From: Deltaproteobacteria bacterium
GTDB taxonomy: Bacteria > Myxococcota > Kuafuiibacteriia > Kuafuiibacteriales > Kuafuiibacteriaceae
DNA length: 64,000 bases
NCBI GenBank assembly: GCA_040218735.1
Contig: JAVJQW010000017.1
Span: 384,001-448,000, forward strand
Direction of reading: 5' to 3'
The position numbers and the translations under genes were made by a program. This document shows, piece after piece, positions 9,552-30,721 of this stretch (the stretch's first letter is position 1; each line of letters starts with the position of its first letter). The notes under the pieces are model-generated. The model saw nothing but the letters and a program-made list of their open reading frames with translations, was not told the origin of the DNA and ran no database searches.

Positions 9552-9792
9552 GGCCCCCAAAAGAGCAGGATCCGAGGATCGGGACAACGCGGCCGGCCCA
9601 ATCGGTGCGCAACCCGGTATCGAAGGGCACGCCGCCTTCATAAAAGGCGCGGCGGATCCCAACTCAGTCCCCGTCGATGCCCCCGTGACGTCCTTCGACC
9701 GCATACCGCTCTCGTGGCCGCGATCACGGGTTTCGCGGCCTCCTGGCCCCGCGTTGTCTCCTATCCGTGAACGTGCAATCTCGGGGGCCACG

Positions 9793-10593
9793 GTGAACCG
9801 CGCGGCGCAGCACGTGTTGCCCTGGGCCCTCGCGCTGCTCGTCTGCTCGAGCGGCTGCGTCGCGGTCTACCAGCCGCTGTCCGGGATGCACGACCCGGTC
9901 GTCGTCGACCCGACGCTCGGCAACCTCCACGACGTCCGGATCCTCGTCCACTGCGTTCCCCAGGAGATCCTCGACGGCGAGGCCGGCCTCCTGTGCCAGC
10001 GCATCAAGACGCTGTTCGAGAACCAGGGCGCCGAAGTCCGCACCGTCACCTCCATCGGACGTAGCGCCGAAGACGAGACGTTCGAAGCCCCCGTCGAGCT
10101 CGAGCCCGCGAAGCCGGAGCCGGCCGAGCCCGGGAGCGCGGCCAAGACGGAGGGCGCCAAGGAGGAGAAGGCGCCGCCGCCGCGCATACGCCCGCACCTG
10201 ATCGTCGAGCTCCGCGCCCGCCACCTCCACGAACACGTCGACTACCCGATGTGGACCCTCAGCTGGTTCACCGGGACGCTCGCCCCCGGGATCTCCGAGA
10301 ACACCTTCGTCCAGGAGGTCGTCATCCGCGGCCCGCGCGGATCGCTGCTCGGCCAGGGTGAGCTCAAGGGGCGCATCGTCCGCTACTTCGGCCTGGGCTA
10401 CTGGGCGGTGAACGGCCTCCTCGACCTCCTCTTCCGCGACGACGACGACGAGCTCTCCGACGCGAACCTCTCGGAGCAGCTGAGCACCGATCTCTACGGG
10501 CAGCTCAGCCAGATGGTCTTCAACGCCAACATGCGCCGGCGGGTCCTCGATCCCGAGCCGTCTCCCACGAAGAAGAAGGATGACGCCTCGTGA
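9793..10593 (+). CDS. Lipoprotein, gene 1 of the putative motor operon
   Basis: GTG at 9793, ALALLVCSSGC lipobox; stop overlaps the next start (GTGA). Confidence 0.75.
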   Translation: MNRAAQHVLPWALALLVCSSGCVAVYQPLSGMHDPVVVDPTLGNLHDVRILVHCVPQEILDGEAGLLCQRIKTLFENQGAEVRTVTSIGRSAEDETFEAPVELEPAKPEPAEPGSAAKTEGAKEEKAPPPRIRPHLIVELRARHLHEHVDYPMWTLSWFTGTLAPGISENTFVQEVVIRGPRGSLLGQGELKGRIVRYFGLGYWAVNGLLDLLFRDDDDELSDANLSEQLSTDLYGQLSQMVFNANMRRRVLDPEPSPTKKKDDAS

Positions 10594-11228
10594 TCATCTT
10601 CTTCTTCCTCGGGCTCCTCACGTTGCCGTCGATGATCACGCTGTGGAACGACCCAGCGCCGGGGCTCATCACGAGCTACGAATCGTCGCGGCGCTACAAC
10701 TGCGAACGCGCCACGTTGGAATCCGCCCGCCGCGCGTACCCGGGGCTCCTCGAAGATCAGTACCCGCGCGGTGACTTCATCGAGCGTTCGGCGGTCCTGT
10801 GTACCGAACCCATCGTCGGCGTGGATGTCCGCCACAAACGCGACGCCGCCATCCTCGGCGGGCTCACGCCGACCGTACGGAGCGTCGCTTCGCGGATCGC
10901 GGCCGAGCAGCCCGAGAAGACGTGGCTCGTCGAGGTGCACTACCCGAACGCCGCGGTCGTCGCGAAGGTCGCGTTCGCCGCGAAGGCCGCGCTCGTCGAG
11001 TCTGGCGTCCCCGTCACGGATCGCCTGCCGACGCTCGCGACGGGCGACGTCGACGTCCTCTCGCGCACCCCCGCCTTGAAAGCGCACGCGCTCGCGTGTC
11101 GGCGTTACTTCGCGACCGGCCGCCTCGAAGGCGACGACGCCGTCCTGAGCCTCCTCGTCCTCGACAGCCGCGAGACCGCGCTGCACGCGGGGATCTGCAT
11201 CAACGGAGCGTGGACGTGGCTGCAGTGA
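10590..11228 (+). CDS. Hypothetical protein with N-terminal hydrophobic anchor/signal (operon gene 2)
   Basis: MIIFFFLGLLTLPSMITL; GTGA coupling at both ends. Confidence 0.75.
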   Translation: MIIFFFLGLLTLPSMITLWNDPAPGLITSYESSRRYNCERATLESARRAYPGLLEDQYPRGDFIERSAVLCTEPIVGVDVRHKRDAAILGGLTPTVRSVASRIAAEQPEKTWLVEVHYPNAAVVAKVAFAAKAALVESGVPVTDRLPTLATGDVDVLSRTPALKAHALACRRYFATGRLEGDDAVLSLLVLDSRETALHAGICINGAWTWLQ

Positions 11229-12397
11229 GGCTCACCGCGCTCGTGATGGCGCTGCTGGTCCCCGGGGTCGCCGTCGCCGACGAGGTCGACGACGCGACGC
11301 TCGCCAAGTTGGACGAGCTCCGCAGAGCCAAGGCCAATGAGATCCAACTCAGCGCCTACAACCTGGTCGACGAGCTGGTGTACGGCTGGACGAAGACCCC
11401 AGTGTTCCAGCAGGAGACCGACGTCGTCCTTGCGGGCGTGACGGTCCCGGTGGGTTTGGGCACGGCGCTGTCGAGCCTCGTCGAAAATCATATCAACGAC
11501 GTACTCATCAAGAACCCATCCACGCGGATGACGTTGACCCACTGCCCGGCCTGCACCGCGATGATCGTGCACTCCGGGCGCGACGGTACGGTGATATCGC
11601 GCGGGGTCGACAACCCCGAAGCCTTCGACCGCCTACGGCGCGACACCAGCACGAAGTACGCGCTGTTCGTCGACATCGAAGCGGAGGGCACCTCGCTCGT
11701 CCTGCGCGCGCGCATCACCAAACTCGACACGAGCCTCTCCATCGTCTGGGCCCGAACGATCGCGAGCGCGAGTGACACCCGCTCGATGCTCCGCGAGGCC
11801 GACGACATCAAGTCGGTCGAGGAGGCTCGGCAAGAGCTCATGGCCGCGGTCGAGGACCGCTGGCCGCTCGTCGTCCCGGCGCGCATCTCCGTACGGTTCT
11901 TCTCCGACGGCGGCAGCACCGGCGTGAACCCACCGCCCTTCGTGTGGATCCAGTCCGGCGTGGAGCTCGCGCTCAGTCAGGAGCGCGCTTGGACCGCGAG
12001 TTTCCTCCTCGGCTACGGCTGGGTCCCGAGCTCCTACGACGGGTTCATGGCGCAAGTGCGCATCCACCGCCTCCTCACGGGTGAGTCGCGTTCGTACGTG
12101 CGGCCCGACGCCTACGCATTCCTCGGTGCATCGCTGTTCGCCGTGCAGGGGCCCTCGGCGCTGATCTTCCAGCGCGACCAACTCACGACCGAAGACATCC
12201 TCGCGATCGCGCAGGGCAACGACCAACCCATCCAGATCGTCAGCACCGTTCACGCCGGTCTCGAGCTGAGGATCGGCAACCGCATGGGCCTCAACGTTTT
12301 TGCCGAGCTGCTCCCGGCCCACATCGGCTCCAACAACCTCGGGCTCTTCCTGGATCTCTTCCACTCCTTGGGCACGGAGGTGAGCGTTTGGTTCTGA
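11225..12397 (+). CDS. Exported protein: CsgG/FlgO/TolB-N-like alpha/beta domain plus probable outer-membrane beta-barrel (gene 3)
   Basis: Signal peptide (AVA); CPAC motif; YALFVDIEAEGTSLVLRARITKL..IVWA pattern; ends VSVWF. Confidence 0.65.
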   Translation: MRLTALVMALLVPGVAVADEVDDATLAKLDELRRAKANEIQLSAYNLVDELVYGWTKTPVFQQETDVVLAGVTVPVGLGTALSSLVENHINDVLIKNPSTRMTLTHCPACTAMIVHSGRDGTVISRGVDNPEAFDRLRRDTSTKYALFVDIEAEGTSLVLRARITKLDTSLSIVWARTIASASDTRSMLREADDIKSVEEARQELMAAVEDRWPLVVPARISVRFFSDGGSTGVNPPPFVWIQSGVELALSQERAWTASFLLGYGWVPSSYDGFMAQVRIHRLLTGESRSYVRPDAYAFLGASLFAVQGPSALIFQRDQLTTEDILAIAQGNDQPIQIVSTVHAGLELRIGNRMGLNVFAELLPAHIGSNNLGLFLDLFHSLGTEVSVWF

Positions 12398-13383
12398 AGC
12401 GACACCTCGCGCTGACCGCCGCGCTCGTCGTCGGGTCGACCAGCCCGGCGTACGCCGATCGTTCCACGACACAGGACGCCCTCGACCGCATGGTGGAGGT
12501 GCTCCAGCTCCGTATCGACGACGGCACGTTGCGGAAGCCGGAGATGACGCCCGCGCTCGTGGTGCGGACGGAGACCCGGTACGAGGAGTCGAAGGATTGG
12601 TTCCCGAACGAAGCGCTCAATCGGTTGATCGAGGTCCTCGGCGCGAAGGACCTCCGGCTCTGCGAGGCGTGTATGACGCCGCGGGTGTTCACGGGTGACG
12701 GGCGCCTCGAGCACAGCTCCGGGCCGATCACTTTGGAGGAGATCGTTCGCCTCGACACGATGGCGCGCGGCGACGCCGAGGCCGCCAAGACCGCGATCTG
12801 GGTCGACGAGCAGGCGACCGGGGTGTCGGTCAAGATCGTCGAGCTCGCGACTGCGCGGGTGCTCTTCGCGCAGAACATCGACCCGATGCTGCGAGAGCAG
12901 GAGAACACCGAGGGCCTCATGCGCCTCAGCGCCGAGCTGGAGCGGCGTGCCCGCGGCGACAGCCTCACGCACGCCTTCGTGGATCTCGCGCTGCTTCCGA
13001 GCCAACACATCTCGTTCGACTGGACGGACCAGTGGGGCGAGGAGAACAAGAACTTCACGGGCATCACGATCTCCGCGTTCGATCCGGTCTTCGGCGTCGG
13101 CGTCGCGTACTACCGGGTGTTCGGCGTCTTCCACATCGCCGACATCCCCTTCGCTCCGCAGTTCGGCGGGAAGGTCGTGGTGAGTCTACCGACGGCCATC
13201 GTGAACGCCGTCGCGCCCGACGACGCGGGGGACCTCATCGACCCGATCCTCACGGGGGTCGGTGTCATACGCGTGCCTTTCGGCACGTCCAACTATGCGC
13301 TGGTCGCGACGCTCTCCACGAACGCGCGTTTTGCGATCGGCATCTCACTGCTGAACATCAGCTTCCTCCCGGTGATCCCATGA
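12388..13383 (+). CDS. Exported protein, probable distant paralogue of gene 3 (gene 4)
   Basis: Signal peptide (AYA); CEAC motif; AIWVDEQATGVSVKIVELATARVLFA; beta-strand-rich C-terminal half. Confidence 0.65.
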   Translation: MVLKRHLALTAALVVGSTSPAYADRSTTQDALDRMVEVLQLRIDDGTLRKPEMTPALVVRTETRYEESKDWFPNEALNRLIEVLGAKDLRLCEACMTPRVFTGDGRLEHSSGPITLEEIVRLDTMARGDAEAAKTAIWVDEQATGVSVKIVELATARVLFAQNIDPMLREQENTEGLMRLSAELERRARGDSLTHAFVDLALLPSQHISFDWTDQWGEENKNFTGITISAFDPVFGVGVAYYRVFGVFHIADIPFAPQFGGKVVVSLPTAIVNAVAPDDAGDLIDPILTGVGVIRVPFGTSNYALVATLSTNARFAIGISLLNISFLPVIP

Positions 13384-14012
13384 AAAGAACCGTACTCATC
13401 GTCGTCGGTCTCATGAGCTCCGCGTGCGCAGCGCGAAGTTATACCCACTACCTCGTAGCGCCCGCGCCCAAGAAGGCGCCGCCGATGGAGGAGGAAGGCA
13501 CCCTCGTACGTCCGCTCGCGTACGGCTCGACGACGGTGATGAAGGTGCGGTGGAACGACGGCAACACGATGACGGAGGTGCACGTCCCTCTTCTCGCGAG
13601 CGGACAGCGCATCGTCATCGAACACGAGAAGAAGCCCGAGGGCGTCGACACCATCCCTTCCACACGCCTCGTACCGCCGCGCCCGACGCCGGCGGACGAC
13701 TCACTCGTCGAGGCGTACCGCGAACGCGGCCTCGCGATCGACGAGGAGGCCCCGGAGGTCTCGATCTCCCGCGCACGCACCGCGATGAACGACGCCATCG
13801 CCCAGGGCAGCTATGCGATCGCGCTGGAGTGGGCCGAGATGGTCCTCGCTCGCTACAAGTCACATCCGGAGTTCCTTCGCGCGAAGGCATCCATCCTCTT
13901 GCTGATGGGTGAACGCGACAAGGCGATTCAAATCTACGAGAAGGCCGAGGAGATCGAGAGTGATCCCGCGGTCCGCAAGAAGTTGGAAGAGCTGCAGAAG
14001 CAGACGCAATAG
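13380..14012 (+). CDS. Lipoprotein with C-terminal TPR-like helices (gene 5)
   Basis: MKRTVLIVVGLMSSAC lipobox; ATGA overlap; AKASILLLMGERDKAIQIYEKA is TPR-like. Confidence 0.8.
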   Translation: MKRTVLIVVGLMSSACAARSYTHYLVAPAPKKAPPMEEEGTLVRPLAYGSTTVMKVRWNDGNTMTEVHVPLLASGQRIVIEHEKKPEGVDTIPSTRLVPPRPTPADDSLVEAYRERGLAIDEEAPEVSISRARTAMNDAIAQGSYAIALEWAEMVLARYKSHPEFLRAKASILLLMGERDKAIQIYEKAEEIESDPAVRKKLEELQKQTQ

Positions 14013-14024
14013 GAAAACGATCGA

Positions 14025-14744
14025 ATGCAACTCATTGGCCTGTCCCTCGTTGGTTTCGTCGTCTGGTACGGCTTCGCCGATCGCGACATGACGCGCATCT
14101 CCCCCTTCGATGCGCACGCGCTCGTGATGGTGTTGGTGGGCTCGCTCGCCGCCGTCCTGACTTCGTCCTCGCGCCTGACTACGGTGCGAACGTTCCTCTT
14201 CCTCCGGGAGCTCGTCCCCGGCCTCGCGCGGTTCTCGCCGGACACCGACTCACTCGAGGCGGAGCGCAAACAGGTCGGCGCGCTGTGGCGTGAAGGCAAC
14301 CGCGCTCAGGCCGTCGCCCTCGCGGAGCGAAGCAACTTCCCGGCAATCAAACGCATGCTCGAGCTCCTCCTGGGACGTGCACCGCGTGCCGCGACGGAGA
14401 CCGCGTTCACGGAGCTGAAACACGCCGAGCTGGGGAGCTGGCAGCCCGCGGTGTCGAACTGGGAGATGCTGGCGAAGCTCGGGCCGTCGTTCGGGATGGT
14501 CGGAACCATCACCGGCATGATCCAGCTGTTCCGCAACATGGGCGCCGACAACCTCAACATCGGCGCAGCGATGTCGCTCGCGTTGCTCGCCACGCTGTAC
14601 GGCGTCGCGTTCGGCGCAGGCATCGCAGGCCCCATCGGACACTACCTGCGCACCCTGTTGGACGAGCGCCTCGGCGCCATCGAACGCTGTGAGCAGAGTG
14701 TGTACGAGCTCGTCGCGCTCTCCGTGGGCGAGGCACGGAGGTAG
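14025..14744 (+). CDS. motA: Flagellar-stator-type MotA/PomA homologue (gene 6)
   Basis: Two N-terminal TM segments (FDAHALVMVLVGSLAAVL), cytoplasmic WREG segment, PSFGMVGTITGMIQLF and IGAAMSLALLATLYG match MotA TM3/TM4. Confidence 0.85.
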   Translation: MQLIGLSLVGFVVWYGFADRDMTRISPFDAHALVMVLVGSLAAVLTSSSRLTTVRTFLFLRELVPGLARFSPDTDSLEAERKQVGALWREGNRAQAVALAERSNFPAIKRMLELLLGRAPRAATETAFTELKHAELGSWQPAVSNWEMLAKLGPSFGMVGTITGMIQLFRNMGADNLNIGAAMSLALLATLYGVAFGAGIAGPIGHYLRTLLDERLGAIERCEQSVYELVALSVGEARR

Positions 14745-14747
14745 GTC

Positions 14748-15374
14748 GTGCAGCGGAGGGTCTTCGGAAGTGAGGAGGGGTGGCTACTCTCGTACGCCGA
14801 CCTCATCACGAACTTACTCATCTTCTTCGTGATGCTGCTCGCCGCCGCGAACATCAGCCGCACGAAGATGCAGCAGATCTCTCAGAGCCTCTCGGGGATC
14901 GAGAGCAAGCAGAGCCTCTCTTCGATCAAGCAGGAGATCGACGAGCGCATCCACAAAGAGGGGATGGAAGGTCTGGTTCAAACGAAACTCACCGACGACG
15001 GCCTGGAGCTGTCGCTGAACTCGGGGTTGGTGTTCGACTCCGGGCGCGCCGACATCCGAGCGGAGATGACGACGGCGCTCGGCGGCATGCTGAACACGCT
15101 CGTCCCGTACAGTGAGAAGTACGCGTTCGCGGTCGAAGGCCACACCGACTCCAAACCCATCATCAACGGCACGCTGTTCAAGTCGAACTGGGAGTTGTCG
15201 ACGGAGCGCGCCAACGCGGTGCGCGGGAAGCTCGAGGACGTGGGCGTGGACCGCACGCGGATTCGCGTCGAAGGTTACGCGGACACACGACCCCTGCCGG
15301 CGAAGGAGCTGGAAGGCCTCGACGAAGAGGAGCGACTCGCGCGCCACAGGCGTGTGATCGTGCGGGTGTACTGA
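14748..15374 (+). CDS. motB: MotB/PomB homologue with OmpA-like peptidoglycan-binding domain (gene 7)
   Basis: WLLSYADLITNLLIFFVML (MotB TM with the ion-binding Asp), plug-like KMQQISQSL, FDSG, VEGHTD, SNWELSTERA, GYADTRP, RRV. Confidence 0.9.
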   Translation: MQRRVFGSEEGWLLSYADLITNLLIFFVMLLAAANISRTKMQQISQSLSGIESKQSLSSIKQEIDERIHKEGMEGLVQTKLTDDGLELSLNSGLVFDSGRADIRAEMTTALGGMLNTLVPYSEKYAFAVEGHTDSKPIINGTLFKSNWELSTERANAVRGKLEDVGVDRTRIRVEGYADTRPLPAKELEGLDEEERLARHRRVIVRVY

Positions 15375-17167
15375 TGAAGCGCCTCGCAACGTTCCTCCTC
15401 GTGTCGCTGTCGGCGTCGACCGCGATCGCCCAGAACCCCTCGATTCCGGACCGGCGCATTCCGCCGTCCGTGCTCGCCGAGCTCCGCGTCCTGCAGGACC
15501 GGTTCGACGAGGCGCTCGCGCAGGACTGCGCTTCGGTGCGGTGTTTCTCGAAGGGTTGTACTTACCTCGATCACACGGTCTCGGATCGTCCGCGCGCGAC
15601 CGCCCTGCCCGGTCTCGCCGAGGATCAGGGCCCCGGCGCCGAGCCGGCTCAGGAGTACCTGACCCTCGCGCGCTGCGCCTTCGCCTATGAGCAGGACATG
15701 GAGGCGAAGGACGCGACGGCGTTGGCGCGTCGCCTGCGGACCAAGCTGTCGAACGGCTGGACGACGGTGGAGATCGGTCGGCAGCGCCTCCAACCCATCC
15801 CCGCGGAGCTCCGTGAGCCGCCGGCCCCTCCCGAGCCCGAAGAAGAGGTCGTCGAAGAACCGCCGGCCCCGGTGGTCACGCCTCCCAAGGAGCCCGAGTG
15901 GGGGTTCAACATCGCGGTGCGCGAGCTCTGGGTGAACCTTCTCCCGCATTTCGCCTGGATGATCGCGCTCGTGATGCTGACGTTTGCGGCGCTCATCCTC
16001 ATCTGGGGCTGGCGTCGCCTCGGGCGAATATCACCCGAGGAGCAGGCGCTGCTCGCGCAGATGGGTGCGTCCGACAAACCAGACGAGGCGGCGCTCGAGC
16101 CCGAGGTCGCGGACGAAGAACCCGAGGAGACCGAAGAGGTCTTCGTCGGCAAACAGAGCGCGTACTGGACGGAGCGGCTGTCGCAAAACGGCCACCCCGA
16201 CCCGGACGTGCAGGCGCTGATTGCGCAGTGGCTGAAGGAACGTGAGATGGGTTTGCTCGCGAAGGCCGTGTTGACGTTCCCCGAGGCGTTCCCGCGAGCG
16301 TTCCCGGACGGCGGTGAGTTCGCAGAGTCGAAGCTCCACTTCTCCGAGTACCTCCGCGAAGTGAAGCAGCCCGAGCTGCCGACGGACGAGGTCTTCTACA
16401 AGCAGCTCAAACAACACGCGCTGTCGGCCTCCCTCGCGCGGCAGGAAGACGTGACTTCGATGGCGACGCTGCGCGATGAGTTCGGTGCGTCCGGGCTGGT
16501 CCGCTTCATCCAGAAGCTCCCGCCTCGGTTCGGGGCGCTGTTGTTCGCGCACGCTTCCACGAGCGACCAGCTCGAGGCCGCGCGGCTGTTGTCCTCCGGA
16601 CAGGTCACGACGCTCGCAGAGCAGCTGCTCCAGTCCAACCGGATGAGTCGCGCGGAGAGTAGGTACGTCATGGAGCTGCTGTCGGCGAGCCGTACGGACC
16701 AGACGCTCCCGCCGCCGCCCGACGTCACCGAGGTGACGGACCTCGGGCGGACCTTCGACGCCGCCTCGGCGCTGTCGATCCTGCTGCCACGGGCCGAGCC
16801 GCACGATCGGAACCTGCTGCTGACCAACGCGAAGATCCGCTTCGGCGGTGGGTTTCCGAGTTGGTACGAGCAGATCCTCTTCCCGGAGATGGTGCTGGCG
16901 CTCGACGAGGAAACACGCGCGAACGTCTTGCTCGCCGTCGACGCCAACGCGCTCTCGGGTTGGATTTCGGTGCTCTCGGAGCAGAGCCGCGCGGCGCTCC
17001 TCGGAAGCATGTCGCCGACGCTCCGGGCGGCGGTGTCGTCCGGCGCGCGGTTCGAGTCGCGCGCCGAGCAGCTCGAGCGGTTCCGCGAAGGTCGGGAACA
17101 GACGGCGGCGGCGCTTCAGCAGCAGCTCGCGCGTACCGGCACGCCGTTCGAGAGTGTGATGGCCTGA
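15374..17167 (+). CDS. Single-pass membrane protein, putative FliF-RBM3-like / FliG(M+C)-like fusion (gene 8)
   Basis: Signal peptide, periplasmic domain with ALPGL, Pro linker, one TM (FAWMIALVMLTFAALILIWGW); cytoplasmic FIQKLPPRFGALL.. and ILFPEMVLALDEETRANVLLAVD..SEQSRAALLGSMS follow the FliG M/C pattern; TGATG coupling to motB. Confidence 0.6.
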   Translation: MKRLATFLLVSLSASTAIAQNPSIPDRRIPPSVLAELRVLQDRFDEALAQDCASVRCFSKGCTYLDHTVSDRPRATALPGLAEDQGPGAEPAQEYLTLARCAFAYEQDMEAKDATALARRLRTKLSNGWTTVEIGRQRLQPIPAELREPPAPPEPEEEVVEEPPAPVVTPPKEPEWGFNIAVRELWVNLLPHFAWMIALVMLTFAALILIWGWRRLGRISPEEQALLAQMGASDKPDEAALEPEVADEEPEETEEVFVGKQSAYWTERLSQNGHPDPDVQALIAQWLKEREMGLLAKAVLTFPEAFPRAFPDGGEFAESKLHFSEYLREVKQPELPTDEVFYKQLKQHALSASLARQEDVTSMATLRDEFGASGLVRFIQKLPPRFGALLFAHASTSDQLEAARLLSSGQVTTLAEQLLQSNRMSRAESRYVMELLSASRTDQTLPPPPDVTEVTDLGRTFDAASALSILLPRAEPHDRNLLLTNAKIRFGGGFPSWYEQILFPEMVLALDEETRANVLLAVDANALSGWISVLSEQSRAALLGSMSPTLRAAVSSGARFESRAEQLERFREGREQTAAALQQQLARTGTPFESVMA

Positions 17168-17170
17168 GTC

Positions 17171-19213
17171 ATGCGGCGCGTCCTCGCAATATCGATGTTG
17201 CTGACCGCGGCTTGTCTGAAGCTGCCGGTCTCCGACGTCAATGCGGGGTTCGATCTCGCGGATGCGTCCTGGTTCCAGGACGAGGAGACGCTGTTCTTCT
17301 TCTACGAGGTCTCCGCCGAGCAAGGTCTCAACGAGGCGAGTGTCATCGAAGTCACCTACCGGACCGACACCGAGACGGTGCCGTGGACGCGCATCGATCA
17401 GCTCGAGTACGTGCACCCTCACCTTCCGGTCGACTGTGGGTTCACGCGTCGCTGTGGGAGCCTGAGTTTGCACGTCCCCGATCGACCGCGCGAAGTCGGG
17501 ATCCGGTTGCGCTATCACGAGGACGGCGAGCTCGCGCTCACCACGGAGACGGTCTTCAACGCGATAGGGTCGGGCCCGGCGCACTCGAACCGCAGCTTCC
17601 TCGTGTACGGCGTGTTCACTGCGAACAATCAGCGCGTGCAGTGGCGCGGTCGCCACCGCTTCCCGACATTGCGCAACGAACAGGTCCAGGAGCTCGGCCT
17701 GCGACGACGCTTCCAGGTCGATGCGCACGCGTACGGCTCCGCCGACTTCCCGCGGTTCGCCAACCCATATGGCTACGGCGTGGCGTGTCCCTCGTCCTTC
17801 GTGCCGCTCGGCTTCTCGGCGATCAGTACCCAGGACCGCGCGGTGTTCGACACGCAGGACCTCCCGCAGGAGGCGGCGACGTCGGCGCAGGTTTGTGCGC
17901 GCGCGACGGTGCTCGAGCCGAGGGCGCCGTTTGTCACGTCGGCGCTCGCGCAGAAGAACCCCGAGGTGGAGCCGGCGTTCCCGGTGCTGCGGACGCCGAT
18001 TCACGAGGCGACGCCGATCAAGTTCTTCCTCGCGCCGTGTGACCGCACGATCGACGCGGACCACGAGGAGATGCAGCGGCAGCGCATCCTCTACGACGGC
18101 CCGGCCACGTGTGTGGAGGATTGGCGGGCGCCGGACTTCGTGGACCGGCTGGTGGGACGGCTCGAGGAAGCGATCGAAGCGACGCGTCCCGCGGGTGAGG
18201 ACATGGTGCTCGTGATGGCGCTGCACCGCGAGAACTCGGAGGACGAGCTCGCGGACCAGCTCGAGGAGGTGCTCTCTCAGATCCTCCCGTCCGAGCGAGA
18301 CCGCGCGACGCCGCGGGTCGTGGGTGCGTTTGTCTTCGACAGTGAGATTCGCGACGTCCGCGACCCCGTGCTCAACCGGCTGATCCTGTGGTGCCCGGCG
18401 AGCATCGTCGACGACGAAGAGGTGGAGCCCGGTCCGTCGAACGCGAACTGCGCGATCACGCCGGACAACGTGAACCTATCGCTCGGACCGTTCTCACTGT
18501 CGTTCCTCCCGATCCTGCCGTCGCGCAACCGGTACCTGGACTTCATCGACCGGTACTCCAAAGCGCAGGCCGGCGAAGTGAAGGAGCTGACGTTCCTTGT
18601 CCCGGAGTTCACGCCGACCACGGACAACACGCAGGTCGGTGGGTTGGTCGCGACGTTCTTCAATCAGGAGATCATTTCGGCACAACCCGAGGACGCGTTT
18701 TCGTTCTGCCCGTCGGAGGAGCCGCAGCCGTTTGTCTTCCGCACGGAGATCTCCAAGTCGGACGACCTCGATTGTCCACCCGGCCAAGAACCCACCGAGG
18801 ACGACTTCTGCCTCCCGCCGCCTCAGGACTTCCTGCCAATCGAATTCCTTCCGATGTGGCACGACGTCCTGCAGGAGCAGACCTACGAGCTGGGGCTCCT
18901 GTGGGACTTCCCGTGGCTGATGCGTGCGACCTACGAGGTCGTCGCCGCGGCGAGCGCGAGTGCCTTCGGGCTCAGCGTCCCGTTCGGCTTCGGAGCGGAG
19001 CAGATGGAACAGCTCGGCGCGCCGCAGTGGCTTCGCGGTGAGTTCCCGCTCGCGGAGCGCCTCGCGCACTGCAAGCGGTTCTGCGACCACCCGACGTTCG
19101 ACTCCGCTGGGATCTACAACGTGACGCGTTCCTTCCGGTCGACGTACCTCGACGGTTGTTACCGCCCCTCGTACCCGGCGCTGGGAGATTCGAGCTTCCC
19201 ACGTGATCCCTAG
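17171..19213 (+). CDS. Large Cys-rich lipoprotein (gene 9)
   Basis: MRRVLAISMLLTAAC lipobox, many Cys, 3 bp after the gene 8 stop. Confidence 0.8.
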   Translation: MRRVLAISMLLTAACLKLPVSDVNAGFDLADASWFQDEETLFFFYEVSAEQGLNEASVIEVTYRTDTETVPWTRIDQLEYVHPHLPVDCGFTRRCGSLSLHVPDRPREVGIRLRYHEDGELALTTETVFNAIGSGPAHSNRSFLVYGVFTANNQRVQWRGRHRFPTLRNEQVQELGLRRRFQVDAHAYGSADFPRFANPYGYGVACPSSFVPLGFSAISTQDRAVFDTQDLPQEAATSAQVCARATVLEPRAPFVTSALAQKNPEVEPAFPVLRTPIHEATPIKFFLAPCDRTIDADHEEMQRQRILYDGPATCVEDWRAPDFVDRLVGRLEEAIEATRPAGEDMVLVMALHRENSEDELADQLEEVLSQILPSERDRATPRVVGAFVFDSEIRDVRDPVLNRLILWCPASIVDDEEVEPGPSNANCAITPDNVNLSLGPFSLSFLPILPSRNRYLDFIDRYSKAQAGEVKELTFLVPEFTPTTDNTQVGGLVATFFNQEIISAQPEDAFSFCPSEEPQPFVFRTEISKSDDLDCPPGQEPTEDDFCLPPPQDFLPIEFLPMWHDVLQEQTYELGLLWDFPWLMRATYEVVAAASASAFGLSVPFGFGAEQMEQLGAPQWLRGEFPLAERLAHCKRFCDHPTFDSAGIYNVTRSFRSTYLDGCYRPSYPALGDSSFPRDP

Positions 19214-19976
19214 CGTCCTCGCTGCGCTCGTGCTCATGAGCCCGGGCGCGACAACGACGTCCTCCGACGCCCCGACCCTCTCGCGGTTCAAGCTGCCGTG
19301 GGAGATCTTGGTCGACAAGACGGTGGGGACGACCACGAAACCCGTGCGGTTCGACTGGCGGCGCACGAGCGTGCACGTCGGCGCATTTGCCGCGCAGCCG
19401 GCCGAGTTCAACAACTACAACTCGTTTCGCTCCGGCGTGCTCGCGCGGATCCCATCCGACGCCCTGATGTACGAGCTGGGCCTGAGCTACGTCTGGGTGT
19501 TCGAGACGGAAGCGAGCAAACGGCTCGCGCTCACGCCGTACCGTCAGCCGGGTCGACCGCAGCGCTTCGAGATCGACTTCTCGGTGGGTGTGCCCCTGGC
19601 GGAGGGTGTCGTGACCGTGTGGCCTTCGTGGTTCCCGGCGGCCGAGCTGGTGTTCAGCGCGTACTTCAACCTCCGCTATTTGATCTATCCGAGTGGGTTC
19701 GAAGGGCTGAGCTTCCGGAATATCCTCGGCTCTTCGTTGTCACCGAAGATCAGCGACGACGAAATCGAGAACCTCGACGACAACCGCCTCCCCGGGATGG
19801 AGGTCGACCGCACCCGGTACTCGCTCTACGCGGGGCTGGGGACGGACATCTACTTCGACTTCGGGCTCTTCGTCGCGCCGCGCATCATGCTCGCGGTGCC
19901 GCTGCTCGCGGGGATCGCGGAGTCCGAGATGGGCTTCTCGATGGAGTTCTCCCTCGCGTTGGGAGCAGCGTTTTGA
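19203..19976 (+). CDS. Probable outer-membrane beta-barrel protein (gene 10)
   Basis: Signal peptide, alternating hydrophobic strands, C-terminal FSLALGAAF. Confidence 0.7.
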   Translation: MIPSVLAALVLMSPGATTTSSDAPTLSRFKLPWEILVDKTVGTTTKPVRFDWRRTSVHVGAFAAQPAEFNNYNSFRSGVLARIPSDALMYELGLSYVWVFETEASKRLALTPYRQPGRPQRFEIDFSVGVPLAEGVVTVWPSWFPAAELVFSAYFNLRYLIYPSGFEGLSFRNILGSSLSPKISDDEIENLDDNRLPGMEVDRTRYSLYAGLGTDIYFDFGLFVAPRIMLAVPLLAGIAESEMGFSMEFSLALGAAF

Positions 19977-21817
19977 TCGGCGTCGTCGCCGCGCTCCTGA
20001 TCGCGGGCGTCGAGCCCGACCCGGCGACGCTCGTCTACTACAACGCAAGGATGCAGCTGAGGGAGCGCCGCTCCGAGGACGTGCTGCGCCTGTGGCTCCT
20101 GCGAAATTCCTTGGAGAGCCAAGAGCGTGCGCTGTCCGCGTACGACGAAGACTTCAAGAGCCTCGTGTGGGTCGCGCTCGGCGACCTCGGCTACTGCCAA
20201 GACGGCATCAGCTTCGACGACGACGGCGCCGGTTTATGGCCCCTCGCGCTCCACAACTGGTTCCTCCGCAACATGCGACGCGGCGAGGCGCCGGACCAGC
20301 CGGCGCCGTTCGACGCCTTCGACATCCCGCAGCAAGCGCGGTTCGTCACGCTCCAGGACGTGCTGAGCGTCGACGAGCTGAATTCCGTTCGGTTCTACCG
20401 GACCGATTGCTACCGCATGAAGGAGGTCCTCTCGGCGGGCGGCGTGAAAGGCGAGCCCAACGAGCGCAAGGTGCAGGTCGCCGTGTTGCGCTTCCTGCTG
20501 GAGGCCGCACGACACACCACGCAGCGTCCGCAGGTCCGCGGTCAGGCGACGATCGAAGCGCGGCTCCTCGACCTCCGCCTGAAGAAACTCGACCTCGTGG
20601 ACCGAGAGCAACGGAGCGCGGAGCGAGAACGTAAACGCCGCGTACGGGATCTCGGCGGCACGTTCGTCGAGGCCCCGAGCATCGCGCAGTCGGAAGAAGT
20701 CGCGGAGCTTCTGTCGGTCACCGACGGGTGGGTTGCGGACGACTGGCTCGCGCTAGAGCCGGGGCGACGCCTGTACCTCTACGACTGGGTTCTCAGGGCG
20801 AAGCGCGAGAACCCAGAAGTCACGCGCTCGATGATCGACCGGTTGATGACCAGCGAGGACACGTCGGAGGTCGGTGCGTGGATCGCGTTCACCGGTGACA
20901 GTGACACCGCGAAGGCGAGCATCTGGTCCGGCGAGCGCGGACGGCGGCTCCTCGCGCTCGATCCGAAGACCGGCTTCAGGGAGCGCGCGGCGATCGCATT
21001 GCACCGTGGCGTCGATGCCGTCGGCAAAGGTGACCTCCCCGAGGCGCTCCGATCTCTGGCCTACACGCTGAAGTACGCCGACGAGTCCACGCAGTCGGAG
21101 GCGGTGCGTCGCCTCGGCCTGCGGTGGATGTCGTTCGTCGCTGGTCGCTTCGCCGTTTCGGAGGCGCTGATGACGATGCTCGTCGAGCTCGTCCCGCGCG
21201 GTGACCTGTCGCAGGTCCTGGAGGGGCTGATCTGGGACGCCGCGATGTCGTCGGACCTCGAGTCGTTCGACCGGACCGTCAAAGCGCACCGCGGACGTGG
21301 CGCCCTCGCGCTGCGCATCGAACGGCTGCGCCCGCTCGCGGAAGGTGACGTCGGCGCGTTCCTGACGCGCATCCGTTCGGAGCTCCCCGAGTCCCCCCAC
21401 GCGACGCTCCGATTCCTCCGCCGGTTCCTGGAGCGGCTCGAAACCCAGGACGGCGACGTGCGCGCGATGCACCGCGCGACCCTGGAGGCGATCGATCGGG
21501 AGCTCGCCAAGGCCACGGAGATCCTGGAAGGCGGCCTGGGCCGAAACGCCCGTGAGTTGGAGCAGGTGACGAACGCGATGCTCGAAGGACTCGATGTGAT
21601 CGGTGACTCGGAGCGCGAGCGCGCCCGAGCGTTGTCACCGACGAGTGAGGTGTTCGCGGGGAGCATTCGCCTCGCGCCGACGGACGCGCTCCCGTGGCCG
21701 TTCGTGGTGCCGACGATTCGTCCGCCGTCGGTGTTCAGTCCGTTGAAGATCACGCCGGTCGAGTGGCCGGACGCGTCGGGCGAAGGGTTGGTGATGGGGT
21801 GGAAGCTCGGTCGCTGA
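19973..21817 (+). CDS. Exported alpha-helical (TPR-like) protein (gene 11)
   Basis: TTG start overlapping the previous stop (TTGA), short hydrophobic N-terminus, helical-repeat character. Confidence 0.7.
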   Translation: MIGVVAALLIAGVEPDPATLVYYNARMQLRERRSEDVLRLWLLRNSLESQERALSAYDEDFKSLVWVALGDLGYCQDGISFDDDGAGLWPLALHNWFLRNMRRGEAPDQPAPFDAFDIPQQARFVTLQDVLSVDELNSVRFYRTDCYRMKEVLSAGGVKGEPNERKVQVAVLRFLLEAARHTTQRPQVRGQATIEARLLDLRLKKLDLVDREQRSAERERKRRVRDLGGTFVEAPSIAQSEEVAELLSVTDGWVADDWLALEPGRRLYLYDWVLRAKRENPEVTRSMIDRLMTSEDTSEVGAWIAFTGDSDTAKASIWSGERGRRLLALDPKTGFRERAAIALHRGVDAVGKGDLPEALRSLAYTLKYADESTQSEAVRRLGLRWMSFVAGRFAVSEALMTMLVELVPRGDLSQVLEGLIWDAAMSSDLESFDRTVKAHRGRGALALRIERLRPLAEGDVGAFLTRIRSELPESPHATLRFLRRFLERLETQDGDVRAMHRATLEAIDRELAKATEILEGGLGRNARELEQVTNAMLEGLDVIGDSERERARALSPTSEVFAGSIRLAPTDALPWPFVVPTIRPPSVFSPLKITPVEWPDASGEGLVMGWKLGR

Positions 21818-21828
21818 AGCGTCGCGCG

Positions 21829-22452
21829 ATGCGGCGCGAGCTGAGCGAGCGGCGACGCGCCATGCGCGCGGCGCTGAAGGCGCGGCGCCGGGCCCTGCAG
21901 GCGGAGCTGCGCGCGCGGCGCGGAAAGCTTCCGAAGACCTCGTCGTCGAAGTGGCGACGTCGGGTCGTCATGGCCCTGATCATCATCCTCTTGCTCCTGC
22001 TGCACCTGTGCACCGAAGAGCCGCCGCCCCAGGTCGGCAAACCCACGCCCCCCGCGCCGCTGGTGTTCGGCCCACCAGCCCCCCCGCCGACGCCGGAGCC
22101 ACCACCGATTCGTCGTCGGCTGAAGAAGCGCGAGCGCCCCGACTACACGAGCGCTCCGCCGCGAAAGAAGCCGTGGCTCGACGCCTACCGCCTGCAGGTC
22201 GCGGGACGCAGCGTCGTGCTCGCCACGTGTTTCGAGGGGGTCGAGCGCCCGGGCGCGGTGCGGTGGGTGGCGTCCGTCGACGTGAAGACCGGTCAGGTCG
22301 CCGAGCACGAGCTGGAGCCCGTCGCCAACGGTGTCGTGCTCAGCCAGGCGCACAAGAAGTGTCTGATCGCCGCGCTCTCGAAGCCGTATCGCCTGGAGGC
22401 GACTGAACCGAGCAGCACCCCCGAGCGCGTCGCGATGGTGCTCGAGTTCTAG
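21829..22452 (+). CDS. TonB/GltG-like energy transducer: basic N-terminus, TM, Pro-rich linker, TonB-C-like domain (gene 12)
   Basis: Arg-rich helix, TM VVMALIIILLLLL, poly-Pro linker, C-terminal CF..GAVRWVASVD..GQV....CLIAAL resembling myxobacterial AgmX/GltG-type TonB-C domains. Confidence 0.6.
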   Translation: MRRELSERRRAMRAALKARRRALQAELRARRGKLPKTSSSKWRRRVVMALIIILLLLLHLCTEEPPPQVGKPTPPAPLVFGPPAPPPTPEPPPIRRRLKKRERPDYTSAPPRKKPWLDAYRLQVAGRSVVLATCFEGVERPGAVRWVASVDVKTGQVAEHELEPVANGVVLSQAHKKCLIAALSKPYRLEATEPSSTPERVAMVLEF

Positions 22453-27006: not shown

Positions 27007-28119
27007 GTGGACACGATCCCCGGGTTCGAGATCGACGACGTCCTCGGCAAGGGCGGCACCGGGACGGTCTACCGCGCCAAACGCACCGAGGACGGTCAGG
27101 TCGTCGCGCTCAAGGTGCTCCCGCTCGACGAAGATCCGACGCGCCGGGCGCGCTTCGAGGTCGAAGCCAAGCTCGGCGCGGTCCTCGAGCACCCCGACAT
27201 CATCCACATCTACGGGACCGGCTCCCGAGACAACGTCGGGTGGATCGCGATGGAGCTCCTCGACGGCTTCGAGCTCGCGCTCGCGATGCGGGACGATGCG
27301 TTCGGCGTCGACGATCGGATCCGCGTGTTGATGCGCGTCGCGCTCGCGCTTCACACCGCGCACGAGCAGGACGTCGTCCATCGCGACGTCAAACCTTCGA
27401 ACATCTTCCTCACCCGCGACGGCGGCGTGCGGCTCCTCGACTTCGGCATCGCGCGCCTCGCTGCCAACAAGATCACGAAGACCGGATTCATCGTGGGTAC
27501 GCCGCAGTTCATGTCACCCGAGCAGATCTCCGCGCTCGCGGTCGACGCGCGCACCGACGTGTTCTCACTCGGCGTCGTCGCGTACGAGCTGCTCTCGGGG
27601 AAGCTCCCGTGGCACGGCGAGAACCACACGCAGATCATGATGGCGGTCTGTTCGAAGCCACCGATCCCGCTGCGGAGTGTCTTCGACGGATCACGATTCG
27701 AGCTCGACGAAGCGCAGGTCGATCACCTCGTTCGCATCGTGCACCACGCGATTCGCCAGGAACCACAACACCGCTACGCGTCGGCGCTGGAGCTCGCCAA
27801 CGCGCTGGAAGCTTACCTGGAGCGCACCGAGGGCGCGCTGGACGGCGACGCGCCCCTCCCGTCGATCGACGTCGACCCCGACGAGTTCATGAAGCGGCGC
27901 ATCGACTGGGCCGTCGCGCGCGCGGCGCGACTGAAGGTGGAAGAAGCGATCCCGGCGCCGCGCTCGAACGCCAGCGCCCCGCTACCCCGCGCGGCGACGC
28001 GCGAGCTGGACATCGACGAGCAGGACGAAGCGACCCGCTCCAACGCGCTCTGGTTCGTCTTGCTCACCGTGTTCCTGGTCGGGCTCGGCGCGGCGTTGTT
28101 CCTGCTGAAGACGGCCTGA
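27007..28119 (+). CDS. Ser/Thr protein kinase with C-terminal TM
   Basis: LGKGGTG, VALK, HRDVKPSN, DFG, GTPQFMSPE, DVFSLG. Confidence 0.95.
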   Translation: MDTIPGFEIDDVLGKGGTGTVYRAKRTEDGQVVALKVLPLDEDPTRRARFEVEAKLGAVLEHPDIIHIYGTGSRDNVGWIAMELLDGFELALAMRDDAFGVDDRIRVLMRVALALHTAHEQDVVHRDVKPSNIFLTRDGGVRLLDFGIARLAANKITKTGFIVGTPQFMSPEQISALAVDARTDVFSLGVVAYELLSGKLPWHGENHTQIMMAVCSKPPIPLRSVFDGSRFELDEAQVDHLVRIVHHAIRQEPQHRYASALELANALEAYLERTEGALDGDAPLPSIDVDPDEFMKRRIDWAVARAARLKVEEAIPAPRSNASAPLPRAATRELDIDEQDEATRSNALWFVLLTVFLVGLGAALFLLKTA

Positions 28120-30648: not shown

Positions 30649-30721
30649 CGCACCGCTTTGGAGCATTAGCCCGAGGGTCAGGATGTGTCGAGGACCCCGG
30701 GTTCGGTGTTAGGAAGGGGGG

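Follow-up and report, generated by a model that had tools for sequence, protein, structure and literature searches.

The window analysed here, the whole 64,000-nucleotide stretch at C23:384001-448000, contains a run of genes in which a flagellar-type stator pair and a protein resembling a fusion of FliF and FliG are embedded among genes for envelope proteins, and this raises the question of whether the locus serves a flagellum or encodes a machine of its own. GC3 phase and start-codon scanning place 12 co-oriented genes on the + strand between window positions 9793 and 22452, as follows.

g1, 9793-10593, + strand: lipoprotein of 266 aa, no known family
g2, 10590-11228, + strand: small exported or N-terminally anchored protein of 212 aa with conserved Cys residues
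g3, 11225-12397, + strand: probable outer-membrane protein of 390 aa, core component
g4, 12388-13383, + strand: exported protein of 331 aa with a C-x-x-C region in common with g3
g5, 13380-14012, + strand: TPR lipoprotein of 210 aa, core component
g6, 14025-14744, + strand: MotA, flagellar-type stator A subunit, 239 aa
g7, 14748-15374, + strand: MotB, stator B subunit, 208 aa
g8, 15374-17167, + strand: predicted ring-building-motif-like domain, membrane helix and FliG-like domain
g9, 17171-19213, + strand: large Cys-rich lipoprotein of 680 aa
g10, 19203-19976, + strand: probable small outer-membrane beta-barrel of 257 aa
g11, 19973-21817, + strand: exported helical protein of 614 aa
g12, 21829-22452, + strand: bitopic inner-membrane protein of 207 aa with TonB-like architecture

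The junctions are tight, with overlaps of 4 bases (g1/g2, g2/g3, g4/g5 and g10/g11), 10 bases (g3/g4), 1 base (g7/g8) and 11 bases (g9/g10), and gaps of 12 (g5/g6), 3 (g6/g7 and g8/g9) and 11 bases (g11/g12); the gene calls bear out the original prediction of 12 co-oriented genes with overlapping or ≤12-bp junctions. No internal promoter-like sites were found within the cluster, and terminator-like sites are no more frequent there than expected by chance. Among Myxococcota genomes the genes are colinear on one strand in all 80 related loci, 45 of which carry the full set of 12. Where genes are missing, their positions coincide with contig ends, with the sole exception of L043, which lacks g1-g4 though the DNA is present there. 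The flanks vary; of four flank proteins, two match a single locus each among the 80 and two match none. The claim of a self-contained block whose order is conserved across genomes is therefore sustained by this colinearity and by flanks that the loci do not share. The seven genes tested against L010 (g6-g12) have dN/dS values of 0.07-0.26. Such an arrangement is far beyond chance, and on these sequence comparisons the 12 genes are one unit under selection.

The stator assignment was examined with Pfam and with solved structures. The g6 product matches MotA_ExbB (1.8e-15), and all ten significant solved-chain matches of its profile are flagellar MotA/PomA, with the alignment to 9luc_C covering positions 3-223 of 239; no ExbB, TolQ, ZorA or GldL chain is among these ten. 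Pro154 and Pro203 of this MotA are invariant, and the dN/dS of g6 is 0.07. The g7 product matches MotB_plug (1.7e-14) and OmpA (2e-13), its Asp18, within SYADLITNLL, is invariant in 33 sequences, and its dN/dS is 0.11. These matches make g6 and g7 a flagellar-type MotA and MotB, the latter with a domain that binds peptidoglycan, and the cluster shares with the flagellar motor core a MotA/PomA-type stator, the MotB plug, the channel Asp and an OmpA-like anchor. Both the motA and motB calls of the original prediction and the flagellar type that it gave the stator stand.

The third flagellum-related product, g8, consists of a signal peptide, a periplasmic domain (residues 31-138), a membrane helix (approximately 178-215), an acidic linker and a FliG-like region (approximately 254-597). 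In the AF2 model (pLDDT 86) the periplasmic domain has an alpha-beta-beta-alpha-beta order, the order of the ring-building motifs in FliF and SctJ. A Foldseek search of the PDB returned FliG in all 12 best rows (E from 2.7e-4, with approximately 305 aligned columns to chains of 315-331 residues), and PrgK and FliF rings in lower rows (E 0.26-0.47, probability 0.69-0.96). Using hhalign against 15 canonical FliG sequences, g8 residues 276-580 align to FliG 19-323 over 286 colinear columns (probability 82%, E 1.1e-5). None of 58 g8 orthologues reaches the Pfam FliG_C model and 37 of the 58 match MgtE_N; g8 does not match YscJ_FliF, and its profile found no solved FliG by sequence. The FliG_C cut-off of 23.3 bits is exceeded by P0281 (32.5 bits), a distant family member tied to g8 at E 9e-24, and by P0117 (30.7 bits), the genome's own paralogue. 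By the alignments and the model, the cytoplasmic part is a full-length FliG-like domain that follows the flagellar rotor protein in order through its N, M and C domains, and the periplasmic domain is predicted to be ring-building-motif-like from its secondary-structure order and the weak Foldseek rows. When residues 26-150 are modelled in four copies, the chains are predicted to pair through helix-on-sheet contacts, with an ipSAE of 0.60 versus 0.11 for the best of three controls (contact agreement at least 82%, pLDDT at least 76); in the calibration of the tool, 20 of 30 solved homomers passed the mark used for self-association, as did 1 of 23 single chains. A four-copy prediction is not a ring, and the pass may reflect likeness to solved ring-building domains.

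Unlike the flagellar motor core, g8 would combine rotor and ring in a single chain that has a cleavable signal peptide and crosses the membrane once. FliG's EHPQ motif is replaced in g8, the acidic pair of the torque helix is absent, and only one basic position at that site is retained in part (R in 33 of 58 orthologues), so that the charge interface typical of MotA and FliG cannot be recognised. The FliF/FliG-like fusion that had been proposed from the sequence is recovered by the AF2 model, Foldseek and hhalign together, and the overall interpretation offered with it is supported in part: the stator, g8 and the self-contained block hold up, but the FliG EHPQ motif and acidic torque-helix pair are not conserved.

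Passages of Bergeron (2016, PeerJ, PMC4768692) describe a natural FliF-FliG fusion in the Chlamydiaceae, organisms thought to be non-flagellated, in which a shortened FliF-type ring protein is joined to FliG sequence, as in g8. Engineered Salmonella FliF-FliG fusions are reported there (PMC4768692) to remain capable of assembly and rotation, which means that fusing the two proteins need not disable a rotor. The chlamydial protein differs in being about 330 aa long with two membrane helices and only the M region of FliG, and it lies among type III secretion genes; unlike g8, it has in those passages no MotAB, lipoprotein or outer-membrane partners of its own (PMC4768692).

The nine remaining products are exported or membrane-anchored and have no match to a known family. 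Lipoboxes are present in g1, g5 and g9, in agreement with the three lipoproteins expected. Orthologues of g1, a gene that 59 of the 80 loci contain, keep the lipobox Cys and a GC-V-x-V-Y-Q-P motif and have no match in Pfam, NCBIfam or PADLOC. The g5 lipobox is likewise conserved, as is the motif GCA-x-R-x-YTHYL; identity across loci is 60-74%, and the TPR_14 value (3.5e-5) is above the cut-off. In g9, whose lipobox reads C-x-KVPI, Cys15 and many further Cys residues are invariant, and its AF2 model (pLDDT 87, pTM 0.76) has beta-sandwich domains and an alpha/beta domain for which Foldseek returned only generic Ig-like or macroglobulin-like sandwiches (TM approximately 0.1); Pfam and solved structures gave no match. 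Up to three outer-membrane beta-barrels had been suggested; two of these candidates have a matching C-terminal signal and the third does not. The g3 product has a signal peptide, a periplasmic C-P-x-C domain and, in its orthologues, the ending GTEV-x-x-x-F, an aromatic beta-signal, with neither a Pfam match nor a solved relative; g10 is 13% aromatic, its orthologues end in G-x-A-F/L, again an aromatic beta-signal, and no solved relative was found. From these C-terminal motifs g3 and g10 are probably in the outer membrane, g10 probably as a small, putative beta-barrel. The g4 product has a signal peptide but ends in LLPVIP and has no beta-signal; it resembles g3 only weakly (hhalign E 0.067). 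The anchored unknown corresponds to g2, anchored or exported and present in 63 of 80 loci, with a hydrophobic N-terminus followed by DPAPG, conserved Cys residues and a C-terminal G-x-C-x-x-G-x-W-x-W-L, and no family match in profile searches. The exported helical protein is g11, whose orthologues have a signal-peptide-like N-terminus and then a conserved YYNAR motif, with invariant Trp and Cys residues and nothing matched in Pfam, NCBIfam or the PDB.

A diverged cluster on another contig of the same genome, C61, has homologues of g3, g5, g6, g7 and g8, ordered as they are in the window. The g3 homologue lies at C61:27260-28693 (E 4.4e-5 genome-wide and 2.8e-8 in a targeted search), and that of g5 is directly upstream of motA (E 9.5e-6); the g4 profile also matches the g3-like ORF weakly (E 0.0044). 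These homologies suggest a recurring core of a g3-like outer-membrane protein, a TPR lipoprotein, MotA, MotB and a g8-like protein, and g1, g2, g4 and g9-g12 are an elaboration specific to the family of the window.

The reading that we prefer, with a probability of roughly 60%, is that the 12 genes encode one flagellum-independent, ion-driven machine spanning the cell envelope, and we infer that this machine is probably rotary. In outline, g8 would form a ring in the inner membrane, equivalent to a minimal MS-ring that carries FliG as a fused part; peptidoglycan-anchored MotA5B2 units, using proton or sodium flux, would push its FliG-like domains and turn or displace the ring; its periplasmic part would pass the movement to g9, g11, g2 and g12, from which it would arrive at the outer-membrane parts g3, g10, g1 and g5. 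Our preferred guess for the output is a moving surface or outer-membrane component, which would serve surface translocation or else export or remodel a polymer of the envelope. Literature searches gave no account of such a cluster, whose parts indicate an ion-powered, probably rotary envelope machine that has yet to be described.

The Agl-Glt machinery of Myxococcus xanthus combines an ion-driven 5:2-type motor with TonB-like bitopic proteins, TPR lipoproteins, periplasmic helical proteins and outer-membrane barrels, its motor being the TolQR-like AglRQS. Compared by description, it belongs to the same phylum and its parts list is similar in kind; the motor of the cluster is, in contrast, a flagellar-type MotAB with a peptidoglycan-binding MotB. 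We know of no FliG-like protein in Glt.

An alternative, unlikely in our estimate, is linear force of the Ton or Tol kind, in which MotAB would energise the TonB-like g12, and perhaps g8, by a pull on individual membrane helices or by turning them; g12 would then extend through the periplasm to gate or unplug g3 and g10, and g8 would be a static scaffold that docks or activates the stator. As in Ton (ExbBD-TonB) and Tol-Pal, an inner-membrane ion motor is accompanied by a bitopic protein rich in proline and by partners in the outer membrane, and the majority of the parts lie in the periplasm or the outer membrane. The architecture of g12 is indeed TonB-like, with an Arg-rich cytoplasmic N-terminus (alternative starts are GTG 21799 or 21694), a membrane helix, a C-x-C, a Pro-rich linker and a conserved C-terminal domain, and a language-model feature search of the Atlas listed TonB clusters at rank 10 (score 0.90) and rank 26 (score 0.87), a weak lead only. 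The missing torque-helix charges of g8, and a ring that is prediction and not observation, would also suit this reading. However, none of 33 g12 orthologues matches TonB_C in that C-terminal domain, so that of the TonB/GltG-like protein of the original prediction the bitopic, proline-rich architecture stands and the TonB family domain does not. Profile searches detected no TonB-dependent receptor, Pal or TolB family among the cluster products, and the stator, with its peptidoglycan-anchored MotB, is of the flagellar MotA type and not ExbBD or TolQR, no ExbB or TolQ chain having been matched. Moreover, the detectable core common to the C61 cluster does not include g12, whereas it always includes g8, which retains both the whole FliG-like N-M-C arrangement and a ring-type domain predicted to self-associate.

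It is very unlikely that the locus supplies a spare or specialised stator set, with accessory proteins, for the host's own flagellum. The flagellar type of g6 and g7 would fit this, and the host does have FliF, FliG, FliM, FlhA and flagellins on other contigs (C59 and C41), which is half of what the original prediction had named as refuting its own reading, a full flagellar system that uses this motAB as a spare stator, but the distribution argues against a spare-stator role. Canonical FliG occurs in 17 of 19 other genomes of the host's family but g8 in just one of the 19. Among 401 Myxococcota genomes there are 56 carriers, some without a strong FliM or FliG match: in 35 of the 56, tallied by hand, a FliM match is absent or no better than 1e-8 to 1e-17, the complete genome of Archangium minus has no FliG_C match, and in A. 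gephyra, A. lansingense and Hyalangium versicolor such matches occur only in ORFs of 570-689 aa elsewhere. With 35 carriers lacking strong FliM and A. minus lacking FliG_C, the cluster is, judged from gene content, independent of a flagellum. It also encodes its own FliG-like partner, and the genome has a further motAB pair at C66:130954-132609. Unlike the flagellar motor core, the cluster has no genes for an export gate, ATPase, FliM/FliN, rod, hook or filament, and nine unrelated envelope proteins are co-inherited with it. The predicted dearth of flagellar genes besides MotAB is confirmed within the families named and the ORFs scanned: none of the genome's matches to FHIPEP, FliG_C, FliM, Flagellin_N or YscJ_FliF falls inside the window, in a search by name that left out flhB, fliPQR, fliI and the rod and hook families, and no other flagellar Pfam match occurs in 37 window ORFs (the 3'-open ORF from 57863 being left out).

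An anti-phage system like Zorya, or another conflict system with a MotAB-type sensor motor, is more doubtful still. The occurrence in 56 of 401 genomes is patchy, the genomic neighbourhood is variable and ZorB models match g7, though these are generic MotB models; against this, there is no match to ZorA (g6 included), ZorC or ZorD, g6 at 239 aa is without the long tail, none of the 12 products has a nuclease, ATPase or other effector domain, and nine are exported envelope proteins. The cluster was predicted to be neither Zorya, Ton nor Agl-Glt, and it indeed fails the tested features of each. Least probable of all is a decaying, functionless relic of a lost flagellar system, which would account for just three flagellum-related parts and for the FliG motifs lost from g8, but not for intact colinear ORFs in 80 of 80 loci, dN/dS of 0.07-0.26, nine conserved non-flagellar partners and functional MotA and MotB residues that are still invariant.

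The g8 family as a whole comprises 176 clusters at 50% identity among 1.84 billion proteins. Patchy distribution and varying flanks would also fit a mobile accessory module.

Because the G+C content of the window is 65–72%, raw ORF lists are noisy, and genes were called from third-position G+C (GC3) phase followed by a start-codon scan. The phase shows 12 clean changes on the forward strand between 9.8 and 22.5 kb, and the genes called there, g1 to g12, are listed below with the signals seen in their products.

Genes of the 12-gene block, each called by GC3 phase and start scan (window positions, strand, product)
9793–10593, +, g1, lipobox
10590–11228, +, g2, probable signal peptide
11225–12397, +, g3, signal peptide and C-terminal aromatic beta-signal
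12388–13383, +, g4, signal peptide
13380–14012, +, g5, lipobox and a TPR match in Pfam
14025–14744, +, g6, predicted MotA
14748–15374, +, g7, predicted MotB
15374–17167, +, g8, predicted fusion of a ring-type and a FliG-like domain
17171–19213, +, g9, lipobox
19203–19976, +, g10, probable signal peptide and C-terminal aromatic beta-signal
19973–21817, +, g11, signal peptide
21829–22452, +, g12, membrane helix and proline-rich spacer

Neighbouring genes of the block overlap by as much as 11 bases or stand as far as 12 bases apart. Inside the block there is no sigma-70-like site, and four terminator-like sites were observed where 6.7 are expected. The original prediction is thus correct in its coordinates and in its list of parts.

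The products of g6 and g7 resemble flagellar stator subunits. Pfam assigns MotA_ExbB to g6 (1.8e-15) and both MotB_plug (1.7e-14) and OmpA (2e-13) to g7. When a profile of 33 g6 orthologues was compared with solved chains, all ten significant PDB matches were flagellar MotA or PomA, with 9luc_C aligned full-length (residues 3–223 of 239), and there was no ExbB, TolQ, ZorA or GldL among them. The hydrophobic segments of g6 and a loop of about 95 aa agree with the four membrane helices and large cytoplasmic loop of flagellar-type A subunits, and Pro154 and Pro203 are invariant among orthologues. In g7 the plug, the channel aspartate (Asp18, invariant among orthologues) and the OmpA-like peptidoglycan-binding domain of flagellar-type B subunits are all present. 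The nearest NCBIfam models are flagellar stators with scores far under the equivalog cut-offs, which neither protein reaches (53.5 bits against 237 for g6, 119.4 against 283 for g7). Together, g6 and g7 are predicted to be a stator of the flagellar type.

The g8 protein begins with a signal peptide and a periplasmic stretch of about 150 residues; a single membrane helix and an acidic linker then lead to a cytoplasmic part of about 340 residues. Its AF2 model has a pLDDT of 86 (58 homologues). In a Foldseek search of the PDB, FliG chains of 315–331 residues fill the 12 best rows, each with about 305 columns aligned, and among the weaker rows are the ring proteins PrgK and FliF (E 0.26–0.47, probability 0.69–0.96). 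By hhalign, residues 276–580 are colinear with FliG 19–323 (probability 82%, E 1.1e-5), the FliG side being 15 canonical proteins from the host's own family; both searches place the three-part N-M-C helical architecture of the FliG fold in g8. The family models behave differently, and none of 58 g8 orthologues reaches the Pfam FliG_C gathering score. MgtE_N, a fold relative of FliG, matches 37 of the 58 and is sub-threshold on g8 itself, and the g8 profile finds nothing significant by sequence among solved structures. There is nonetheless a tie to FliG_C, because the g8 profile finds a distant family member, P0281, at 9e-24, and P0281 passes the FliG_C cut-off (32.5 bits). Of the ten distant family members scanned, the host paralogue P0117 (30.7 bits) is the only other one to pass, and six have no Pfam match.

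FliG has an EHPQR motif for FliM binding and charged residues in its torque helix, with names and numbering in part after a MotAB phylogeny paper (PMC12505986). The motif is not kept in g8, where the aligned stretch reads LPPR-GALLFA; at the place of the torque helix 33 of 58 sequences have an arginine, the acidic pair is missing, and other charges are conserved instead (D/E505, E513, R515, D517, D523 and R574). A further difference is that FliG is soluble and docks on the C-terminus of FliF, whereas g8 is membrane-anchored with its FliG-like part directly after the membrane helix. The likeness of g8 to FliG, and its probable likeness to FliF, are at the level of fold and do not extend to family models and motifs.

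Pfam YscJ_FliF does not match the periplasmic part of g8, and the sole match in the host genome is the flagellar FliF at C59:383904. In the AF2 model this part contains a helix (31–51), two strands (57–70 and 93–105), a helix (111–125) and a strand (130–138), an alpha-beta-beta-alpha-beta order that fits the ring-building motif. Four copies of residues 26–150 are predicted to associate, with helices of one copy packed on the sheet of the next. The ipSAE is 0.60, where the highest of three controls has 0.11, at a contact agreement of at least 82% and a pLDDT of at least 76. Among solved homomers 20 of 30 reach the tool's mark for self-association, and among single chains 1 of 23 does. This prediction supports lateral packing of the domain, short of a ring, and the score may reflect likeness to solved ring proteins.

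All nine other products (g1–g5, g9–g12) carry export or anchoring signals. Apart from the TPR match of g5, no relative of these was found in Pfam, NCBIfam or solved structures; there is no named NCBIfam or Pfam match for g1–g4 and g9–g12, and NCBIfam returned nothing for g1–g5 and g8–g12. Pfam searches of 33 orthologues each of g9, g11 and g12 also gave nothing, and family profiles of g9, g11, g12, g3 and g10 found nothing significant among solved structures. The g9 model is confident (pLDDT 87), with beta-sandwich domains and an alpha/beta domain, and no function follows from it because its fold matches are generic beta-sandwiches (TM about 0.1); the ESM Atlas gave no usable match for g9. Retention of g9 in the inner membrane by a lysine at +2 was considered and dropped, as orthologues vary at that position. 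When ten cluster families were aligned all against all by hhalign, no pair exceeded 30% probability, and paralogy of g3 and g4 is suggestive only, because their E value is 0.067. The g12 protein begins with an Arg-rich cytoplasmic N-terminus; its membrane helix is followed by a C-x-C motif and a proline-rich spacer, and its C-terminal domain is conserved. The earlier description of g12 as TonB-like holds for this architecture (N-terminal anchor, proline-rich spacer, C-terminal domain) and fails for the family, as none of 33 orthologues matches TonB_C at E up to 0.05. No PDB relative of g12 was found, and TonB clusters at ranks 10 and 26 of an ESM Atlas language-model search are a weak lead only.

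There are 116 close homologues of g8, all unnamed or 'hypothetical' and, where the source is named, from Myxococcota. The g8 family is small: a search of 1.84 billion representatives with its profile gave just 176 clusters with E values up to 0.001. From 104 relatives in a scan of species-representative genomes 80 loci were retained, and the predicted gene order proved to be conserved: in all 80, whichever genes are present lie colinear on a single strand, and 45 have all 12. By gene, the counts are 80 for g8 and g9, 79 for g7, 76 for g6, 71 for g5, 69 for g10, 68 for g11, 67 for g4, 65 for g3, 63 for g2 and 59 each for g1 and g12. Gaps sit at contig ends, except for two borderline cases and L043, a MAG contig (L043:1–4486) that has g5–g9 and no recognisable g1–g4 in 4.4 kb upstream, and which is a genuine short form of the block or else the product of a mis-join. 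None of the window's four flanking proteins is conserved beside the block in the 80 loci, so the conserved unit is exactly g1–g12. Ratios of dN/dS against the closest locus (L010) for g6–g12 are 0.07 (g6), 0.11, 0.15, 0.15, 0.15, 0.19 and 0.26 (g12). As judged from these comparisons, the stator and g8 are co-inherited and selected together with the nine envelope proteins.

Five carriers are cultured (Archangium lansingense, A. minus, A. violaceum, A. gephyra and Hyalangium versicolor), and others are MAGs labelled Polyangia and Bradymonadia. Eleven carrier MAGs (L012, L018, L019, L024, L030, L034, L040, L044, L052, L065 and L078) are labelled Enterobacterales, Enterobacteriaceae or Bifidobacterium breve, and these labels are evidently wrong. 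Divergent from g1 lies a gene for an 833-aa protein with OmpA and FecR domains (7290–9791, −). It is beside the cluster in only 1 of the 80 loci and is therefore not a conserved neighbour; its longest-ORF start directly adjoins that of g1, leaving no bases between them, and for this reason one of these starts probably lies deeper inside its gene.

The original prediction allowed that a full flagellar system in the host might use this motAB as a spare stator. Flagellar genes are indeed present in the host genome, which comprises 11.6 Mb in 70 contigs, and contig C66 has an additional motAB pair.

Flagellar genes of the host genome (contig positions)
C59:381940–397619, flagellar gene region
C59:381940, FliG
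C59:383904, FliF
C59:390868, FliM
C59:395676, FlhA
C41:352764–356754, two flagellins

Canonical FliG is present in 17 of 19 other genomes of the host's family and g8 in 1 of 19; because of the host genes and this count of FliG, the host's myxobacterial lineage appears to be flagellated. Among 401 sampled Myxococcota genomes, 56 carry g8. A hand tally against the FliM search divides these into 21 with a strong FliM match (E at most 1e-25, ORFs of about 340 aa), 33 with weak matches only (1e-8 to 1e-17; ORFs of about 430–560 aa where listed) and 2 with none. The weak matches are probably to another FliM-fold protein, and such matches in 430–560-aa ORFs occur in most sampled Myxococcota. In a survey of FliG_C in five named carriers, the complete A. 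minus genome has no match, A. gephyra, A. lansingense and H. versicolor have matches only in 570–689-aa ORFs elsewhere, and one MAG has canonical FliG. The block is in all appearance independent of the flagellum, and a spare stator unlikely, because many carriers lack a strong FliM match and A. minus lacks FliG_C. The host genome also has FHIPEP (FlhA/SctV) matches at seven places, six of them full length; two matches (C23:303504–304010 and C23:323241–325271) lie 60–80 kb upstream of the window, and a weak FliM-family match in a 565-aa ORF lies near one FHIPEP match.

A diverged second cluster is present in the same genome at C61:27260–35892, of which locus L002 covers 30606–33902.

Shared genes of the second cluster (contig positions)
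C61:27260–28693, g3-like protein
C61, ending at 29316, g5-like TPR protein
C61:29320–30117, motA, 30% identity
C61:30032–30781, motB, 38% identity
C61:30765–32453, g8-like protein, 562 aa

These five genes are in the same order as in the window, and are followed by genes for two lipoproteins and then a proline-rich membrane protein. The 562-aa g8-like protein passes the Pfam FliG_C cut-off, and its family has 50 homologues, many with precomputed FliG_C and some annotated as FliG at source. Because only these five families are detectably common to both clusters, we take the putative core to be an outer-membrane protein, a TPR lipoprotein, MotA, MotB and the ring-FliG fusion, to which the window block adds seven genes. 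Judging from the seven extra genes, and from two paralogous clusters being present in one genome, the module seems to have diversified to serve different outputs.

The closest known system to the block is the core of the flagellar motor. Zorya has a ZorA with a long cytoplasmic tail, together with ZorC/ZorD or other effectors, which the block does not have: the PADLOC ZorA model does not match g6, no PADLOC model matches g8, g9, g11, g12, g1 or g3, and g7 is matched by generic ZorB (MotB) models only. The Agl-Glt motor is of TolQR type and lacks a peptidoglycan-binding domain, whereas g7 has an OmpA domain and the g6 profile matches flagellar MotA chains only. The claim that the block is not Agl-Glt, Ton or Zorya holds, in that it appears to lack the tested defining features of all three (from TonB_C, the g6 profile and PADLOC), the comparison with Agl-Glt being one of the motors. 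A natural FliF-FliG fusion in Chlamydiaceae and engineered fusions that rotate in Salmonella are described in print (PMC4768692). Unlike g8, those fusions are without a dedicated stator or envelope partners. We found no description of a non-flagellar operon of MotAB with a FliG-like protein in a full-text literature that takes in few subscription journals. The MotAB phylogeny paper has no mention of 'Myxococc' in its main text (PMC12505986), and its 'generic' or 'flagellar' clades may include these stators. We regard the system as made of known parts but of a kind that has yet to be described, the evidence for it being computational throughout. To our knowledge, all known non-flagellar 5:2 ion motors (Ton, Tol, Agl-Glt, GldLM and Zorya) work without a FliG ring, and we know of FliG-driven rotation from flagella only; on that ground, a conserved operon in which a flagellar-type stator is joined by a ring-FliG fusion and by nine envelope proteins of new kinds would represent an ion-powered envelope machine of a new class.

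The block is predicted to encode a flagellar-type, peptidoglycan-anchored ion channel complex next to the membrane protein g8, which combines a FliG-like part in the cytoplasm with a periplasmic part probably of ring-building type. A plausible mechanism is that g8 would form an inner-membrane ring and that MotA pentamers, rotating around anchored MotB, would push its FliG-like domains; motion of the ring would then pass to the periplasmic partners g9, g11, g2 and g12, and onward to the outer-membrane parts g3, g10, g1 and g5. We give such a rotor-stator envelope machine a probability of roughly 0.6. Its composition and its independence of the flagellum, taken jointly, are highly probable, and actual rotation is evenly balanced; against a rotor are the EHPQ motif and acidic torque-helix pair not kept in g8, and the lack of FliM/FliN in the cluster.

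The main rival is Ton-like pulling through g12, with g8 as a scaffold. The architecture of g12 fits this reading, the TonB_C domain of TonB is not found in it and g6 has no ExbB match, and we regard such pulling as unlikely. A spare flagellar stator, which the host's flagellar genes would allow and which is at odds with carriers lacking a strong FliM or FliG_C match, a dead relic of a flagellar system, and Zorya were each rejected as very improbable.

Returning to the rotor-stator machine, a bolder form of it can be put forward tentatively, and we would sooner bet against it: a second kind of bacterial rotary organelle, in which a FliG-type rotor ring turned by MotAB drives periplasmic and outer-membrane machinery instead of a filament, with its own 12-part myxobacterial envelope apparatus and with a core of five parts that is older than the flagellar motor or runs parallel to it. 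In that case the rotor-stator pair would be an ancient stand-alone module and the flagellum only one device built on it. The cluster occurs in cultivable, non-flagellated soil myxobacteria (Archangium, Hyalangium) and would offer a tractable, minimal rotor-stator pair for the study of torque generation; with it, the old question whether the flagellar motor came from a simpler rotary module becomes testable.

Elsewhere in the window we noted three genes for Ser/Thr protein kinases, of which one includes a PEGA domain, and several genes for large or envelope proteins.

Other genes (window positions, strand)
27007–28119, +, Ser/Thr protein kinase
34696–36687, −, Ser/Thr protein kinase
42395–44188, +, Ser/Thr protein kinase
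45389–51739, −, 2116-aa TPR protein
57863–64000, +, ORF of more than 2046 aa, open at the window end
30722–32488, +, 588-aa OmpA-domain protein with a thrombospondin type 3 repeat
32469–33902, −, TolC-like outer-membrane efflux protein, adjoining the 588-aa protein
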